This document shows, in pieces, positions 57,182-63,824 of a stretch of 64,000 nucleotides of DNA. The notes beneath the pieces were generated by a model that was given only the letters and a program-made list of their open reading frames with translations, had not been told where the DNA came from and did no database searches. Source of the DNA: an uncultured Acidimicrobiales bacterium (lineage in GTDB: Bacteria; Actinomycetota; Acidimicrobiia; Acidimicrobiales; SZUA-35); the NCBI GenBank assembly GCA_963803845.1, contig CAWDNZ010000004.1, forward strand, positions 349,309 to 413,308. Direction: 5' to 3'. Each line of letters opens with the position of its first letter. Position 1 is the stretch's first letter. A program made the position numbers and the translations under genes.

Positions 57182-58090
57182 TCAGATCCCCTTGCCGAAT
57201 CGGTGAAGCAGTTGGAGAACTCGATTGGCGGGAACGCCGGCTGCAACGGCGAGGGCAACGACCCAGCGGGGCTCCCGCCAGTTCAACCGGGCCACTTCGA
57301 CCACGGTTTTGAGTGCCCTTCGTCGTTGACCGATCGCCCCCTGAGCCACCGCCTGCTGGCCTTTGATCCTGGCCAGGCCAGCCGGAACAGATTGGAAATC
57401 CGGGTGTTTGACCACCAGGTACTCGAGAGCCTCGTCGATCATCTTCCAGCGCTCAAAGAAGAAGGATGCGCCGTGCCAGTAGATGCGAACCAGCGGCTCT
57501 GCTATGACGGCAAATTCGGTGCGCTCCGATGCCCGTAGGAGCAGGTCATAGTCTTCGGCGTAACCGCCGGGAAGGTCCTCGTCGATCCCGCCCAGTTGTC
57601 GGAGCAACTCGGTGGCGGCAACGAACGACGACGGATGCACTTCGGTCATGCGATCCCTGAGGAATCCGTTGTGGGTCACCTTCTGCGGGTCGGGAATGCG
57701 AGCGGTGTCGGTTCCTTCGTAGTTGATGAAGACGCCGGTGGCAGCAAATTGACACGACGGGGCTGCGCTCAACGCCTGCATCTGGGCGTTCAGTTTTCCG
57801 GGTAACCACTCATCATCGTCGTCGCAAAAGGCAACCCAGGGCTGTGTGGCAGCGGCGATCCCGGTGTTTCGGGCGCCCGCCAGGCCCGGCGAATGCGAGT
57901 TCGTGGTGACTGCAACGGACCGGTCCGGATCTACAGAAACGAGGGAGTCATCGGGCTCGGACCGATCGAAGACCAGGATCACGTTGATCGGACCCTCGTA
58001 GTCCTGAGAGAGAATCCCGGCCATCGCTCGACGGAGAAGTTCTGGACGATCGCGGGTAGCGATCACCACCGAAACGCCGGCGGCGGTCAC
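57182..58090 (-). CDS. Glycosyltransferase family 2
   Basis: VSVVIATR, ARNTG, FCDDDDEW, EDYDL. Confidence 0.92.
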   Translation of the reverse strand: MTAAGVSVVIATRDRPELLRRAMAGILSQDYEGPINVILVFDRSEPDDSLVSVDPDRSVAVTTNSHSPGLAGARNTGIAAATQPWVAFCDDDDEWLPGKLNAQMQALSAAPSCQFAATGVFINYEGTDTARIPDPQKVTHNGFLRDRMTEVHPSSFVAATELLRQLGGIDEDLPGGYAEDYDLLLRASERTEFAVIAEPLVRIYWHGASFFFERWKMIDEALEYLVVKHPDFQSVPAGLARIKGQQAVAQGAIGQRRRALKTVVEVARLNWREPRWVVALAVAAGVPANRVLQLLHRFGKGI

Positions 58091-58608
58091 GGGCGATTTC
58101 CCAGCAAGCCGTCAACGTGACGCCCAAAGGCCACAACGCCCGCGGGGAGAACGCCATCGTTCACGGGAAAGGCCGTGCGGGCCGGGTCGGCCAAACCCGA
58201 CTCCACCGCAGAATACAACCGGTCCTGAGTGGCGGCCAGAATGGCCATGTCATGGCGCTGCAAATGGCGAGCGAAGGACATCTGGTGACCATCCACGTGC
58301 TCACCCTGGGCGGGATCACGAGCAACGACGATCGGAATCCGTCCCGCCATGCGGGCATCCATCACCGTTGACGGACCGCCATGGCTGACCACCACGTCGG
58401 CCCGGGCGAACAGCTTACGAAGCTGATCGTGGGGTAGGAGTGCGTCACCTTTGGTGTTGGTCGGAACCTCTGCCGAGCCGTATTGAATGACCACTTCGAC
58501 CTCGGGGTGATCACCAGCCCATGCGTCCATCCAGTTGACCAGGCGGTCGAACCGGTGGTGGTCGGTTCCCACCGACACCATGACGAGTTGGGTTGTTGGT
58601 TGATCCAT
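58087..58608 (-). CDS. PssE/Alg13-like glycosyltransferase subunit
   Basis: VSVGTDHHRFDRL, IQYG, VSHGG, EHVDGHQ. Confidence 0.88.
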   Translation of the reverse strand: MDQPTTQLVMVSVGTDHHRFDRLVNWMDAWAGDHPEVEVVIQYGSAEVPTNTKGDALLPHDQLRKLFARADVVVSHGGPSTVMDARMAGRIPIVVARDPAQGEHVDGHQMSFARHLQRHDMAILAATQDRLYSAVESGLADPARTAFPVNDGVLPAGVVAFGRHVDGLLGNRP

Positions 58609-58619
58609 CTGCCAGCCTC

Positions 58620-59099
58620 CTAGTACAGCGGTCCGATGAGGTGACTTCCCGGGTACAGCTTCTGCTGCTCGGGCCATTGCACGAGAAACGACGTGGTGAA
58701 CGGCTGCACCAGGCGGCCAGTGAGGGTGCGGGAATCAACGCGGTCATAGACCTCCAAGAAGATCGTGGGGATCTTCCGCCGCCGGGCCTCCAGAAAGAAC
58801 GGCACGGCCACGGCAGCACCATTGGACACCACCACATCGGGTTGCTCTCGAGCGATCACCCGACGCGCCAAGCCGTAGTTGCGAGCAACGTTCAGCAGGT
58901 TTCGAGTGGTGGGGTGAAATGCCGGTGTGAATGACTCCTCCGCAAGCTTGCTCTGTGCATCGGGGAGATCGAAGGTCACCCAGTGCCGGTAATGATCACG
59001 CCACCAGGGCTCCAACTGGATCAGCTGGGAGAGGTGACCACCGGAGGAACACACAAAGAGCACTCGATGCTGTTTGGTCTCGCTGCTGCTAAGGGTCAC
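58620..59099 (-). CDS. PssD/Alg14-like glycosyltransferase subunit
   Basis: CSSGGHL, PDVVVSNGAAVAVPFF, TLTG, VQW. Confidence 0.9.
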   Translation of the reverse strand: MTLSSSETKQHRVLFVCSSGGHLSQLIQLEPWWRDHYRHWVTFDLPDAQSKLAEESFTPAFHPTTRNLLNVARNYGLARRVIAREQPDVVVSNGAAVAVPFFLEARRRKIPTIFLEVYDRVDSRTLTGRLVQPFTTSFLVQWPEQQKLYPGSHLIGPLY

Positions 59100-59215
59100 T
59101 TTTCGTTGCCGCCTTCATCTGCTACTTACTTAAGTTGTCGACACGCACTGACGACTTATTGAGCAACACGATGTTTCGCGCATTACGACCCACTAGGCAC
59201 CCGTTGAGCCCTCCG

Positions 59216-60382
59216 ATGACAGTTGAGATCCACGGCCGGGCTGCCAGCCCCAAAGGTTCGCTCGAATGGCTGATAGAGGTTTTGGGCGGCGAGGTCGACG
59301 GACCTTCCACCCCCATGCTGGCTCGGCCGACAGCGGAGAATCCGGAACTGCTGATCCCACTGTCGTCACCGGCGGTGTCAGCTGCCGCCTTAACCCGGCG
59401 CCACGACGGGCGATCACTAAGAGAACAAGCAATCTCGGAGTTGGCATTGATGGCCACGAGGACCGGTCAGCTCCGTCGAGCGGGCGGCGAGGTCGTCGAT
59501 TTTCCGGCTACCGCCACGGTGCAGCTGTTGGCGACCGAGCTGGGCCATACCGGGCTGATCCCAGCCGTCGGGATCGGGCCACCCCGTCGGAACCGGAAGC
59601 CGTCCGTAATGTTGATAACGCCGGATGGGCGCACGCTGGCCTATGCGAAGATCGGCTGGTCCGGACTCACTCGAAGCCTGGTGGCCAACGAATTCGATTG
59701 GTTGCAGCGCCTCGACGGACGGGTCCCCGAGCCCTTTGTCATCCCGGCGCCACTACTGGCCACAGGTGCTCCATCTGGACCGGACGGGCCGACCAAGACC
59801 ATCGTGATGACGCCACTGCCGGGAAGCCGGGGGCGGAAGTATCCCCAACTCGACGCATCCGAGATAAAGAGCTTGGCGCGAACGCTGGGAACCCGAAGAC
59901 GCAACGTTGCTGATCTTTCGTGGCTGACGCCGCCGGACAACGACGGCTCGACTGTTGACGAACTCAGCCAACGGCTCGGAGCCGCCATCATGGCGGTTCG
60001 TGATCAACATGCTCAGGTCGAACTGGAGACAGGGCTGTGGCACGGCGACCTCAACCGTTGGAACACCGTGACCAGCGGTGCTGCTCTCGGAGTCTTCGAT
60101 TGGGAATTCGCCGGGGCCGATCGCCCTGTGGGACAGGACTATCTGCATATCCAATTCGAGACGCTCCGCCGGAGCGGCGGCCGATCACCCACCGAGGCCA
60201 TCGCGGCCTTCCTGCGACAGATGGACACCGAGCGCGATCCGCAGCGGACCGTGGCGATCGACGTGTACCTCGCCGATCTGGCGCTTAGGGAATCCCGGCT
60301 CTCCGGCCAGGGATGGCACGGGCCCATGGCCGGTTACCGCGAACCACTGGTCGAAACACTCGAGAACCGGCTGGCATCGTGA
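59216..60382 (+). CDS. APH-like phosphotransferase-fold protein
   Basis: AYAKIG, NE, WHGDLNRWN, FDWE; start uncertain. Confidence 0.65.
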   Translation: MTVEIHGRAASPKGSLEWLIEVLGGEVDGPSTPMLARPTAENPELLIPLSSPAVSAAALTRRHDGRSLREQAISELALMATRTGQLRRAGGEVVDFPATATVQLLATELGHTGLIPAVGIGPPRRNRKPSVMLITPDGRTLAYAKIGWSGLTRSLVANEFDWLQRLDGRVPEPFVIPAPLLATGAPSGPDGPTKTIVMTPLPGSRGRKYPQLDASEIKSLARTLGTRRRNVADLSWLTPPDNDGSTVDELSQRLGAAIMAVRDQHAQVELETGLWHGDLNRWNTVTSGAALGVFDWEFAGADRPVGQDYLHIQFETLRRSGGRSPTEAIAAFLRQMDTERDPQRTVAIDVYLADLALRESRLSGQGWHGPMAGYREPLVETLENRLAS

Positions 60383-61833
60383 CGGCCACGCTCACCAGGG
60401 GAAAGCAAACCAGCGTGAAGGCGTCGGGCCTTGCAATCATTGGCGCGGTGACCACAATGGTCGCCACCTTCGGCATCGCTCGCCTCGTTTCCGAAAACGG
60501 TGTCGGCGAAGCTGGCGTGTTCTTCCTCGGAACGGCGTTGGTCTCTTTGCTGGGAACCACCGCCACGGTGGGCACGCCGCTCGCGCTCGTCTACTTCATG
60601 CCCCAGGTCATGGCTGAGGAGAACCCAAATCCCCGTGACCTCATTCGGGTCGCCTGCGCCCCGGTGCTGGTCATTGGGCTGGCCTTCGCTGCACTCGTTT
60701 TTGTGGGAGCAGGAACGATCGGCGAACTCTTCGGTGGAAACCGGGCCGAGGAACTGGCAACCGTCGCTCGTTGGCTGGCTCCCACCATTCCCGCGTGGGC
60801 GCTCGGAAACTCGCTGCTTGGCGCCACGCGTGGCCTTGGAACCGTGACCCCGACCATGGTGATCCAACAGGTGGGTCGACCGCTACTTCAGATGACGCTG
60901 TTGATTGGACTGCTCGTAAGCGGTGAGTTGAGTGCCCTCAGCGCCTCGATCGCATGGGGAACTCCAGTGTTGGTGGGAGCCGCAGCGGCCGCTGCAGCAG
61001 TAGCCCGGCATGGCGGCTTCCACGCCGGTGATGCGGCAGTGGTGGGGAGCAGCGAATTTTGGACCTACTGCCGACCTCATGCGCTCACCACCGGATTGCA
61101 GATCGCCGTCGAGCGGCTGGACGTCCTTCTGGTTGGCCTGCTCCTTGGCGAAGTTGTGGCCGGGGTGTACGGCGGCCTCAGCCGGTTCGCCACAGCGGGC
61201 AACTTCATCGTCTTCGCCGTGGCCCAGGCGGTGTCGCCCAACCTTCGAACCGCCCTCAAACATCACCGCCTGGCAGAGGCCACCACGCTGCTCCACCAGG
61301 CATCCAGTTGGATGGTTCTGATCGCCTGGCCCTATCTGCTCATCGTTGCCCTGAAACCAGAACCGCTGGCTCGGCTGCTCCAAGACGACTACGTGCCCGA
61401 CGCCCGAATCCTTTCGATCCTGGTGGTGGGCATGATGGTGAGTTCGGCAGCAGGCCCCATCAAACTCCACCTCCTCATGAGGGGCCACCCGCGGGCCACG
61501 CTCGCCACAACGGCGCTCTCGCTCGTGACGGACATCGTCTTGCTCGTGGCCCTCACCGACCGGTTCGGTATCGGCGGCGCCGCCGTGGCGTGGGCCTTCA
61601 GCGTGGCGATCGAGAACGTTGTGAATAGCTACCTCTCGGCGCGCTGGCACGGCGTGATGGGACTTGCCGCTCCGGCGATTCGAGCGATGGGCGCAGCGGT
61701 GGTCGTGGTCGTGCCGCTCGCACTCCTCACGCCAAACACCTTCGCCGGGCTGGTGCTCACAACCGCAGGCGCCGGCGCACTCATGCTGGGCTACATCTCC
61801 ATGAACAGAACAGCGTTCGGCCTCAATCGCTAG
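60379..61833 (+). CDS. Polysaccharide flippase (Wzx/MOP family)
   Basis: 12-14 TM pattern, ERLDVLLVG, FGIGGAAVA; GTGA overlap. Confidence 0.85.
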   Translation: MTATLTRGKQTSVKASGLAIIGAVTTMVATFGIARLVSENGVGEAGVFFLGTALVSLLGTTATVGTPLALVYFMPQVMAEENPNPRDLIRVACAPVLVIGLAFAALVFVGAGTIGELFGGNRAEELATVARWLAPTIPAWALGNSLLGATRGLGTVTPTMVIQQVGRPLLQMTLLIGLLVSGELSALSASIAWGTPVLVGAAAAAAAVARHGGFHAGDAAVVGSSEFWTYCRPHALTTGLQIAVERLDVLLVGLLLGEVVAGVYGGLSRFATAGNFIVFAVAQAVSPNLRTALKHHRLAEATTLLHQASSWMVLIAWPYLLIVALKPEPLARLLQDDYVPDARILSILVVGMMVSSAAGPIKLHLLMRGHPRATLATTALSLVTDIVLLVALTDRFGIGGAAVAWAFSVAIENVVNSYLSARWHGVMGLAAPAIRAMGAAVVVVVPLALLTPNTFAGLVLTTAGAGALMLGYISMNRTAFGLNR

Positions 61834-61844
61834 AGCGCACTGTT

Positions 61845-62500
61845 GTCCCTCCGGGGGACGTTCAAACGCCACGCAGGCTGGGCTGTCCCTCCGGGGGACG
61901 TTCAGACGCCACGCAGGCTGGGTCGTCCCTCCGGGAGACGTTCAAAACGCCACGCAGGCTGGGCTGTCCCTCCGGGAGACGTTCAAGCGCCACGCAGGCT
62001 CCGCCTTCCGGCACTGCAATAACTCCTGTCCGAGCCTGAGCTCGGACTGCTCACCGTGCGGTCCCTCCGGGGCGAGGGCAAGCGCGTTACGGGCCACCTG
62101 GGAGCCTGCGGCGCCATGGCAGCTGGCAGCACGATCGTTGTCCCTCCGGGGGACGTTCAGACGCCACGCAGACTGGGCTGTCCCTCCGGGGGACGTTCAG
62201 ACGCCACGCAGACTGGGCTGTCCCTCCGGGGGACGTTCAGACGCCACGCAGGCTTTCGCCTGCGGCACTGCAAAAGGTGCATAGGTAACTGAACGCGTGA
62301 CTACTCACCGTGCGGACCCTCCGGGGGTGTAACCCTTTACGCGCAGCGGGAGCCTGCGGCGCAATCTTTCGGCAGCGTGATTGCTGTCCCTCCGGGGGAC
62401 GTTCAGACGCCACGCAGGCATTCGCCTGCGGCACTGCAAGAGATCTTCAGCATCGGAGCACTTGACTACGCAACAGACCGCGTCCCTCTGAGGGCAATCG
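61845..62500. repeat. Hierarchical palindromic repeat element (eight 40-bp units in three ~170-bp cassettes)
   Basis: GTCCCTCCGGGGGACGTTCAGACGCCACGCAGGCTGGGCT starts at 61845, 61885, 61925, 61966, 62140, 62180, 62220 and 62386; conserved linker blocks separate the arrays. Confidence 0.95.
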
Positions 62501-62519
62501 CTTGGCAGCCTTGCGCCGC

Positions 62520-63824
62520 TTACAGTTCGCGCTGGGCACGAATGGCCAACATCGCCGTGACCATGGCCAGGAAGAGCTGAGTGGGAATGGTCAAATAGAA
62601 CAGCGACTGCACGGCCAGAATGATGAGGACCGAATGTAACCAGATACCCGAACTGGAGGTCTGGCGCCACGACCGAATAGTCGCAGAAGCGAAGAACCCG
62701 ATATACCCCATGGCGCCGATGACACCATGGGAGAACAGGAGATACCAGAGCTGGCCATGAGTACCGACGGAGGGCAATCCGCGCTGGTTGGGACGCGGCG
62801 CACCCCAGCCGAACAATGGGCGTTCCGCCGTTCCGTCGAGTGCCGAAACGATCAGTTCGGTTCGGTCGCCATTGGAGTGCGCAGTGTCGATGCGAGTGAG
62901 GGCAACGTCGCCCAGCGGGCTGAGACCGAGGAGCGCCACGAGGAAACAGACAGCCACGGTGCCCCGAACGATCAGCTTGGCATCGCCCAACACTCCCAAG
63001 CGGAGAGCCGCGTAGACGACGCCGATCCCCAGGGACAGCCAAAGCCCCCGGTTCAGTGACAGGACTCCGGGCACAACCGAAGCCACCAAGACACCGCCGA
63101 TCAGGCGCGGGGAAAATCCCGCCCTCCGGTCACTGAGAGAAATGAAGGCGAAGGGCGTGAGGAGGGCCAGCATCGAGCCCCAGGTATTGGTGTAGTCATA
63201 GGGGGCCTTGGGTCTCGGCACGGCGAAACCAATGATGTCCTGCACGTCGGCGAAGCTGGGGGTGACAAGGGTTCTGATCAGGTCGTTCTCCAGCAACACT
63301 CCGGGGAGCAAGTAGTAGAGCGGGGCCCGATAGCTAACCGAACCAATCACGAACGCCAAGAACCCGCCGGCCACCGTGCCCATCCAGAGCCAGGTGAACG
63401 CCCGGACCATGTGCCACACCGTGAGGGTTCGACCACCATTCAGTGCATACAAGGCGTAGCTAAAGGCCGCGGTGGCATACCCCAGCCGGAGAGCCCACCC
63501 GGCGGCTCGGCCGGCACTGTCGAGACTCAGAGCGCTGAACAGAACTGCGGCCAGGAAAAGCATCCACCAGGCCGAGCCTTTCGGAATGATCAATCGCGGC
63601 TTTAGGAGCAGCGAAATGGTGATCGGCACGGCAAAGATGAGCCACATGAAGCCGTGGAGACCCAACAGAAACCACAGTGGGATGAGGGCGAACGCTGCAG
63701 TGATCGGCCACGACGGAAGATCGCGGTCGCCAAGTTGTCGCTGGCGACGGTCTTGCCGTCGACCATCCACATGGGCGCGGCGTTCAGGGAGTTGCCCGGG
63801 CCGGGGTTTCTGAGTGGTCGCCAT
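62520..63824 (-). CDS. O-antigen ligase/polymerase (Wzy_C) family membrane protein
   Basis: Multi-TM; RPKAPY.YTN, SLNRG, RPLFGWG, THGQLW. Confidence 0.85.
   Translation of the reverse strand: MATTQKPRPGQLPERRAHVDGRRQDRRQRQLGDRDLPSWPITAAFALIPLWFLLGLHGFMWLIFAVPITISLLLKPRLIIPKGSAWWMLFLAAVLFSALSLDSAGRAAGWALRLGYATAAFSYALYALNGGRTLTVWHMVRAFTWLWMGTVAGGFLAFVIGSVSYRAPLYYLLPGVLLENDLIRTLVTPSFADVQDIIGFAVPRPKAPYDYTNTWGSMLALLTPFAFISLSDRRAGFSPRLIGGVLVASVVPGVLSLNRGLWLSLGIGVVYAALRLGVLGDAKLIVRGTVAVCFLVALLGLSPLGDVALTRIDTAHSNGDRTELIVSALDGTAERPLFGWGAPRPNQRGLPSVGTHGQLWYLLFSHGVIGAMGYIGFFASATIRSWRQTSSSGIWLHSVLIILAVQSLFYLTIPTQLFLAMVTAMLAIRAQREL

Follow-up and report, generated by a model that had tools for sequence, protein, structure and literature searches.

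A dispersed family of mosaic intergenic repeats in an uncultured Acidimicrobiales bacterium

We analyzed a stretch of 64,000 nucleotides (hereafter the window) from an uncultured Acidimicrobiales bacterium (assembly GCA_963803845.1, contig CAWDNZ010000004.1, positions 349,309 to 413,308 of the forward strand), in which an initial annotation, made from the sequence alone, had singled out a block of repeats at 61845-62500. The block lies between two convergent open reading frames (ORFs) and is most probably a local array of a lineage-restricted, non-coding and non-autonomous family of mosaic repeats, of the same kind as the REP/BIME, NIME, BOX and REPIN elements. Copies of the family are dispersed through the genome, are assembled as mosaics, carry a covarying hairpin helix, lie close to stop codons and have been gained or lost between sister species, with most junctions at a palindromic motif that we call P1. 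The initial annotation had suggested a REP/BIME-like mobilised element, which turned out to be the right kind.

The genome under study (G000; 4.66 Mb in 13 contigs, 94% complete; the contigs concerned are cited as C4, C5, C11 and C12) was compared with ten congeners, G001 to G010, of which G004 is the closest relative. A blastn search with the spacer, as had been proposed, returned 90 matches in the own genome. An iterated nhmmer profile converged on 187 copies of a common core (104 on C4, 81 on C5 and one each on C11 and C12), which form 73 clusters. The exact core pattern, CCCTCCGGGGGNCGTTCN{4,8}CCACG, occurs 89 times in G000, and its reversed control 0 times. Most core copies (167 of 187) lie outside the calls of our crude, home-made ORF caller.

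Beyond this genome, the version of the repeat seen in the window was detected by blastn in 7 of the 10 congeners and in 0 of 30 genomes outside the genus. The exact pattern was present in 5 of the 10 congeners (26, 14, 6, 6 and 3 copies) and in one of five genomes of a second genus, g11 (18 copies). Neither the 72 other genomes of the taxonomic family nor 400 other genomes sampled from the class contained it; with g11 counted in, this makes 1 of 77 genomes of the taxonomic family outside the genus. A scan of a collection with one genome per species gave at least 81 loci in at least 24 assemblies; among the matches listed, 23 assemblies are labelled Acidimicrobiales, Acidimicrobiia, Acidimicrobiaceae, Ilumatobacteraceae or Actinomycetota. 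One exact core pattern sits on a 13.7-kb contig (L064, DATGXU010000274.1) of a metagenome-assembled genome (MAG) labelled Magnetospirillum. Since the other holders among the matches listed are Acidimicrobiales-type MAGs, this case is possibly a binning error or a transfer.

The core spans about 45-55 nt and has the family consensus GATTGCTGTCCCTCCGGGGGCCGTTCAGACGCCACGGAGGCTTCGCCTTCGGCGCTGCAACAGATGCT. It begins with P1, a quasi-palindrome TCCC-TCCGG-GGGA in which CCC and GGG surround TCCGG; P1 is nearly invariant and therefore uninformative on structure. The second helix, P2 (CCGT..ACGG), comprises 4 bp and a loop of 9-10 nt. Among 70 distinct copies this helix (23-26/37-40 of alignment A1) is 98.2% paired, and three of its four pairs vary on both sides (CG 40/GC 25; CG 67/AU 3; UA 67/CG 3). 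Its covariation score of 0.128 was reached by 0 of 500 shuffles, and slid controls gave 0.013-0.055. The same trend was seen in 151 unique copies, and other species add a T-A pair. Watson-Crick covariation of P2 is supported. The non-Watson-Crick cells hold about 5 GT/TG against 11 AC/CA, without an excess of G.U on either strand, so that RNA and single-stranded DNA are indistinguishable as the folded form. The dominant words of the P2 loop differ from genome to genome, as expected from lineage-specific amplification. A third helix, P3 (GGAGGC/GCCTCC or GCAGGC/GCCTGC), is confined to the main subfamilies; as a family-wide helix it was rejected (84.6% paired, zero double changes).

Around the core, a left module, a linker, a GGACTGCTCA block and a P1-like end are combined variously among copies. 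The left module (GCCTGCGGCGC..GCTGGC..GATTGCTGT) stands 5' of the core in about a quarter of the copies, and a core is no more than 250 bp away from 45 of the 47 GCCTGCGGCGC words that the genome contains. The 3' tail runs from a CAACAGAT-like word through a variable stretch to GGACTGCTCA and, after about 8-10 nt, to P1 or a P1-like word. Array periods cluster at 39-43, 90-99 and 110-179 nt, the last two being whole-element periods. The 39-43-nt sub-period is also found elsewhere with other linker letters (16 neighbour pairs), and a 23-24-nt sub-repeat starting at P1 recurs at other loci. Neighbouring copies share a strand in 106 pairs and lie on opposite strands in 8. These eight inverted pairs, 70-88% alike, make up composites of 251-306 nt with the left module as outer inverted repeat, and as DNA are predicted to fold into hairpins at -50 to -116 kcal/mol; none of them lies within the window's own array.

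The spacer in the window, flanked by an ORF at 60313-61833 (plus strand) and an ORF at 62520-63824 (minus strand), is best read as a head-to-tail series of three full elements, E1 (61845-62099), E2 (62100-62347) and E3 (62348 to about 62495). Direct reading and the repeat-profile search gave the following features, in which V1 and V2 denote variable segments:

61834..62519, plus strand: intergenic spacer of 686 bp between convergent ORFs, filled by three head-to-tail family elements
61845..62019, plus strand: element 1 core array; three truncated 40/41-bp units (61845, 61885, 61925), then a complete core (61966-62019)
62020..62099, plus strand: element 1 tail; V1a, conserved GACTGCTCACCGTGCGG, P1-like TCCCTCCGGGG (62062-62072), V2a
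62100..62139, plus strand: element 2 left module (GGGAGCCTGCGGCGCC..GGCAGC..), the 5' terminal module of the family
62140..62273, plus strand: element 2 core array; truncated units at 62140 and 62180, then a complete core (62220-62273)
62274..62347, plus strand: element 2 tail; V1b, GACTACTCACCGTGCGG, P1-like ACCCTCCGGGG, V2b
62348..62385, plus strand: element 3 left module (GGGAGCCTGCGGCGCA..GGCAGC..GATTGCT)
62386..62439, plus strand: element 3 single complete core; P1, P2, P3
62440..62495, plus strand: element 3 tail; V1c, GACTACGCAACAGACCGC, degenerate P1-like GTCCCTCTGAGGGC

The blocks, coordinates and unit copies (4, 3 and 1 in three successive cassettes) listed in the initial annotation were all borne out. 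The 40-bp units start at 61845, 61885, 61925, 61966, 62140, 62180, 62220 and 62386. All eight match GTCCCTCCGGGRGACGTTCA on the plus strand (0.03 expected by chance) and open with GTCCCTCCGGG(G/A)GACGTTCA. Tandem Repeats Finder reports period 40 with 3.9 copies (91% match) and 2.8 copies (100% match). In terms of the family, each unit corresponds to the 40 nt with which the core opens (P1, P2 and one half of P3), amplified in tandem to 4 copies in E1 and 3 in E2, with a single one in E3; the three copies in E2 are 100% identical, and E1 is without a left module. A CGCCT..CGGCACTGCAA block lies 3' of every one of the three unit arrays. It is followed by unrelated segments of 24-25 nt, the first slots (V1a, 62020-62044; V1b, 62274-62298; V1c, 62440-62463), and by GACT(G/A)C at 62045, 62299 and 62464. 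Cassettes 1 and 2 continue with TCACCGTGCGG(T/A)CCCTCCGGGG, a second variable segment (V2a, 62073-62099, 27 nt; V2b, 62327-62347, 21 nt), GGGAGCCTGCGGCGC at 62100 and 62348, and GGCAGC.

The window units belong to a minority subfamily (11 of 187 copies) in which P2 starts with A, where the consensus has a T-C mismatch. This A extends P1 to a GTCCC/GGGAC stem of 5 bp and puts an A.C into P2. The GTCCC-TCCGG-GGGAC hairpin that the initial annotation had described is therefore real at this locus and no trait of the family as a whole. The complete core of E1 shows P1 (CCC/GGG), P2 (ACGT..ACGC, with A.C as first pair), a degenerate P3 and GGCACTGCAA. In E3, P1 occupies 62387-62397 and its extended form 62386-62400, P2 pairs ACGT (62400-62403) with ACGC (62412-62415), and P3 reads GCAGGC-ATTC-GCCTGC. 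An exact complementarity of 10 nt, 10 of 10, connects CGCAGGCTCC (61993-62002) and GGAGCCTGCG (62101-62110), as had been claimed. The closed multibranch fold built on it did not hold up. The closing complement GGAGCCTGCG is the start of the next element's left module and contains GCCTGCG, a word that also forms the 3' arm of the local P3, and all ten positions pair in cassette 1 only. Folding of the whole spacer as RNA was modestly better than that of shuffled sequences (z -3.69 on the plus and -2.06 on the minus strand, 20 shuffles each), and cassette 3 alone gave z -2.06.

The conserved scaffold with replaced interiors of fixed length, noted in the initial annotation, proved to be a property of the whole family. 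The GGACTGCTCA block is present in 97 of 160 complete cores. The linker, measured from the end of P3 (CGGC) to GGACTGCTCA, is 30-31 nt long in 78 of these 97 and 26-33 nt in 93, and its letters vary freely. We rejected a hairpin in the linker, and with it a fold around the variable parts, as linkers fold no better than random 43-mers of the genome (mean z -0.33 versus -0.21). The length, roughly three turns of DNA, may be a spacing imposed by a bound protein. Two of the five variable segments recur: V1a with 23 of 24 positions in another copy (G000:C4:1277119-1277142) and V1b with 18 of 19 at C4:772747-772765. V1c, V2a and V2b occur once in the genome. A blastn search within the own genome aligned cassette 1, including the passage into cassette 2, with C4:1276993-1277199 at 81% identity over 212 bp. 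The best matches of the cassettes thus lie elsewhere in the genome, which indicates that the slots travel with the element and that neighbours come from different subfamilies. Each element is closest to distant copies and not to its neighbour, and consequently slots differ while the scaffold agrees.

Segments of similar length and unrelated sequence between conserved blocks could also suggest a CRISPR-like, spacer-acquiring array, with the 21-27-nt segments as captured foreign DNA. This explanation is already contradicted and practically untenable. V1a and V1b are shared with other element copies, and a blastn search of phage and plasmid sequences with the whole spacer gave 8 phage and 29 plasmid records, all at E 0.2 or worse and none in the V1 slots. 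The searches proposed for these segments brought matches within the own genome and none better than E 0.2 among phages and plasmids, and the notion of spacer-like segments had to be given up. In addition, the 40-bp units abut without spacers between them, unlike CRISPR repeats. The flanking ORFs encode glycosyltransferases, an APH-like kinase, membrane proteins and a Wzy_C-like protein; the absence of cas and transposase genes, initially stated for the window, holds for the six ORFs near the locus, to which the domain check extended.

The clusters are positioned close to gene ends. Their 73 spacers comprise 23 convergent, 42 tandem and 8 divergent ones, compared to 741, 2367 and 740 of 3848 genome-wide (convergent excess, binomial p 0.009; divergent deficit, p 0.04). 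The median distance of a cluster is 50 nt to a stop-facing flank versus 128 nt to a start-facing flank, and in tandem spacers 25 clusters are nearer to the stop and 9 nearer to the start (p 0.009). At C5:1330875 an inverted pair fits between the stop codons of two convergent genes, at distances of 1 and 3 nt. Close clusters have ordinary genes between them (GNAT, ArsR, AHSA1, ECF sigma, acyl-CoA dehydrogenase).

This placement, the P2 covariation and the CCUCC and GGAGG words within the core would also fit elements that act mainly in cis, as RNA structures of the 3' untranslated region that protect mRNA 3' ends or serve as non-canonical terminators and are kept by selection. Such a role is compatible with a mobile repeat family, as E. 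coli REPs are both mobile and cis-acting, and we regard it as a possible, though rather unlikely, main function. Both orientations occur. Of the 32 copies whose core edge is at most 25 nt from a stop, 29 are co-oriented with that gene, as an RNA role would have it; this is mostly element asymmetry, because the 3' tail lies outside the profile. Within 120 nt of a gene end 39 copies are co-oriented and 24 anti-oriented (p 0.08), and a strong orientation rule at stop codons was dropped after this asymmetry had been counted. The P2 mismatches lack the G.U excess of an RNA helix, the stems are weak (3 bp in P1, 4 bp in P2), and a search of both strands of 61600-62750 for an intrinsic terminator, a GC-rich hairpin with a T-run, gave 0 sites. 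No match to an Rfam family was obtained at E <=10; a cmscan of 61000-63500 gave one chance lncRNA match outside the locus. Finally, the patchy phyletic pattern (1 of 5 genomes in g11, 5 of 10 in the own genus) and gain and loss between sister species fit mobile DNA better.

That turnover is evident from the comparison with G004. At the site orthologous to the window array, where the flanking proteins are 91% and 94% identical (DNA about 85%), G004 has 38 bp between the two stops with one unit, cgcaggatgggctGTCCCTCCGGGAGACGTTCAAACGCC, versus 686 bp here. The G004 junction to the right-hand gene is unlike that of the window, and the short form is therefore no collapsed assembly of the same array. 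Congeners more distant than G004 have no element at the orthologous site; in G001 (L132, 3070-3535) the orthologous convergent spacer measures about 600 bp and apparently holds an extra small ORF in place of repeats. Other loci differ as well. G000 has about 90 extra bp between direct CCCTCCGGGGGCGTTCCGC (P1) repeats at C5:740163, left module, core and tail against a bare core in G004 at C5:747494, three copies in 272 bp against a single P1-like hairpin at C5:1324810, and, at C4:772658, 451 bp where G004 has 73 bp, the junctions lying at P1 words. At C4:1401192 it is G004 that apparently has two copies versus one, judged from match coordinates without alignment. At C4:1413417 a 305-bp inverted pair, bounded by GCCTGCGGCGCC and GGCGCCGCAGGC, directly follows a TAG stop, and the G004 site is cleanly empty. 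The pair at C5:1330875 is orthologous in both genomes. Among the alignable indel junctions between G000 and G004, three of four fall at P1 motifs.

A plain degenerate minisatellite confined to this locus, which the initial annotation had named as the outcome that would refute its own reading, or an assembly artefact is very unlikely given 73 clusters built of the same modules, the presence of the family in other assemblies and the unit at the orthologous site of G004. The array itself is demanding to assemble: the second unit array is a perfect three-copy repeat, and contigs of four DNA runs break within the repeats, none that is independent spanning the 686 bp. An X1 run contig of 544 nt is identical to 62334-62877, but this run is possibly the source sample. 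Elsewhere in the assembly, G000:C11:10284-16484 is a second version of a 6.2-kb stretch (G000:C4:2005149-2011349), 88.8% identical, which points to strain mixture or contamination (3.5% contamination reported). A larger element considered at C4:2005349 and C11:10484 was rejected, being this one locus in two contig versions.

Several observations weigh against a mobile mosaic repeat family as the explanation. Twenty of the 187 core copies fall within ORF calls, the gene context as a whole rests on the same simple caller, and the orientation bias near gene ends is weak. There is one clean empty site only (C4:1413417), and it is without a target-site duplication; the other differences between G000 and G004 could equally be explained as deletions in G004. 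A constant linker of 30-31 nt with variable sequence is unexplained by plain selfish spread. Moreover, the link to a RAYT transposase that the initial annotation had envisaged was not found in G000: the RAYT/Y1 profile PF01797 had 0 matches in this 94% complete genome, tblastn with a relative's Y1 protein gave E 0.034 at best, and the Y1 genes of G001 to G004 had no element in the flanking DNA retrieved.

The Y1 gene of the relatives (G004:C209:1230-2186) is RAYT-like and occurs in four congeners; it codes for about 260-300 aa, including a helix-turn-helix-like tail at the C terminus, and has no flanking repeat. A region of G000, C12:3901-4519, resembles the flanks of this gene (65-72% DNA identity), is possibly paralogous and measures 618 versus 1100 bp in G004. 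Among other candidate enzymes, TnpB-type PF07282 had 0 matches in G000, as did IS91-type PF04986, for which the control was equally silent everywhere, making the result uninformative. A DUF559 nuclease was discarded as candidate (four genes, none near a repeat cluster).

The sole IS110-family gene of the genome (C5:1285846-1286664, within locus L218, C5:1285846-1286911) interrupts a core. The 5' half of this core ends ...GCCGCCAC, after GCCAC, and the 3' half (GGAGGCTCGCC...) resumes about 960 bp past it. The first 20 nt of the interrupting DNA (C5:1286850) recur at the same core position at C5:450917, in the copy 450878-450965, which may be the remnant of a second insertion. An Rfam search around the gene gave no match. 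We take the repeat family as a target of an IS110-type element, which is no evidence that this enzyme spreads the repeats. IS110-family elements are also reported to target REPs (PMC1525189, PMC12288879), which is a likeness between the two families.

This gene also counts in favour of another explanation, proposed in similar form for NIME arrays: a site-specific recombinase (IS110/bridge-type or similar) would act at P1, generate the arrays, use them in turn as substrates and swap modules as cassettes. We consider this improbable. Besides the junctions at P1, all tandem sub-repeats of 23-24 and 39-40 nt begin at this motif, and the linker has the length of about three DNA turns without a folding signal. 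Slippage at GC-rich direct repeats of 11-19 bp, however, explains the junctions without any enzyme. The IS110 gene is truncated (272 aa, with DEDD_Tnp_IS110 only and no Transposase_20), and the insertion has hit the 3' arm of P2, outside P1. Among the genus genomes (G000 to G010), 5 of the 6 with the exact pattern and 0 of the 5 without it have IS110 matches, but these eleven genomes are kin, so that the co-occurrence possibly reflects one clade split, and G005 and G010 have 2 and 1 weak blastn element matches. Furthermore, the IS110 loci of the four other genomes had no core in the DNA retrieved around them. We know of no phage or recombinase that acts on P1. In its full form the proposal makes P1 the crossover site of a dedicated enzyme, possibly of the IS110/bridge-RNA type, and the segments between P1 motifs exchangeable non-coding cassettes, which we hold to be a distant prospect. 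If it were true, the arrays would be substrates that diversify neighbouring genes, here a surface-polysaccharide cluster, a protein-DNA complex would through its geometry fix the linker at 30-31 nt, and the NIME hypothesis would gain a parallel in actinobacteria, with a tractable candidate for the enzyme.

A mobile mosaic repeat family has several known analogues. REP/RAYT systems carry a GTAG-like tetranucleotide beside the hairpin; our consensus, GATTGCTGTCCCTCCGGGGGCCGTTC..., is without such a tag. The palindrome is present in many copies, as in these systems (187 copies, 73 clusters), but their cognate Y1 transposase gene, single-copy and typically flanked by the repeats, was not found in G000, and with neither RAYT nor GTAG tag the family stands outside REP/RAYT membership. 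Successive palindromic units of BIMEs alternate in orientation, in contrast to the predominance of same-strand neighbours here (106 versus 8) and to the window, where all eight units are on the plus strand. In BOX elements of Streptococcus pneumoniae, boxA is followed by a variable number of boxB and by boxC. This modular A-Bn-C build is reminiscent of our elements, in which an internal module of about 40-45 bp is amplified differently per locus, while sequence and phylum are unrelated. Miniature inverted-repeat transposable elements differ, because single elements of our family have unlike ends and no target-site duplication accompanies the insertion at C4:1413417; inverted ends are confined to the inverted-pair composites.

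The enterobacterial REP/BIME and the REPINs with RAYT transposases (PMC3116915, PMC3337134) share several traits with our family. REPs are short extragenic imperfect palindromes that occur in hundreds of copies after gene ends and are mixed with other motifs into mosaics, and the window family forms such mosaic clusters too. REPINs are inverted doublets folding as long hairpins, to which our eight inverted pairs correspond.

NIMEs of Neisseria have a build of the same type. According to PMC1797815, dRS3 inverted repeats (ATTCCCN8GGGAAT) flank more than 100 families of RS segments of about 50-150 bp, and a recombinase at dRS3 is proposed, which lends some support to recombination at P1. In both cases, intergenic arrays are divided up by a short inverted repeat of the TCCC..GGGA type, the segments in between are of many families, syntenic arrays vary in number and length between close relatives, and insertion sequence elements occur within arrays. 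NIME arrays, as described there, lie beside surface-protein genes, and the window array lies beside surface-polysaccharide genes. The centre of P1 has 5 nt (TCCC-TCCGG-GGGA) versus 8 in dRS3, and the sequences are unrelated; the two are analogous, not homologous. Our family also has a larger conserved core after P1, with P2 and P3, and an actinobacterial host.

The genes around the array (window 57182-63824) form a surface-polysaccharide-type neighbourhood with GT2 and GT28-C glycosyltransferases and an APH-like kinase. A 506-aa protein in this region has no Pfam match and is hydrophobic by eye, and a weak Wzy_C (O-antigen ligase-like) match scores 25.4 bits, under the Pfam cut-off of 31.7.

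Taken as a mobile family, the elements would spread as whole composites into fresh intergenic sites, by an enzyme that is not a RAYT encoded in G000. The 40-nt duplications within elements would arise by slippage or unequal exchange between GC-rich P1 repeats. The hairpins may be retained because a host or mobile-element protein reads them, or because of a role in the 3' untranslated region at the RNA level. A covarying helix without a RAYT and a linker of fixed length and free sequence together suggest recognition by a protein not yet known.

No description turned up in our literature searches on REP-like repeats of Acidimicrobiia or Ilumatobacter; in one paper Acidimicrobium ferrooxidans is a mere table entry. 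An order that has been little studied and is mostly uncultured thus gains a repeat family both abundant and undescribed. The single IS110-type insertion in a core provides a link to the REP-targeting behaviour of bridge recombinases. On the practical side, the repeats break short-read assemblies, yield spurious ORFs and mark gene ends, and they are possible strain markers.

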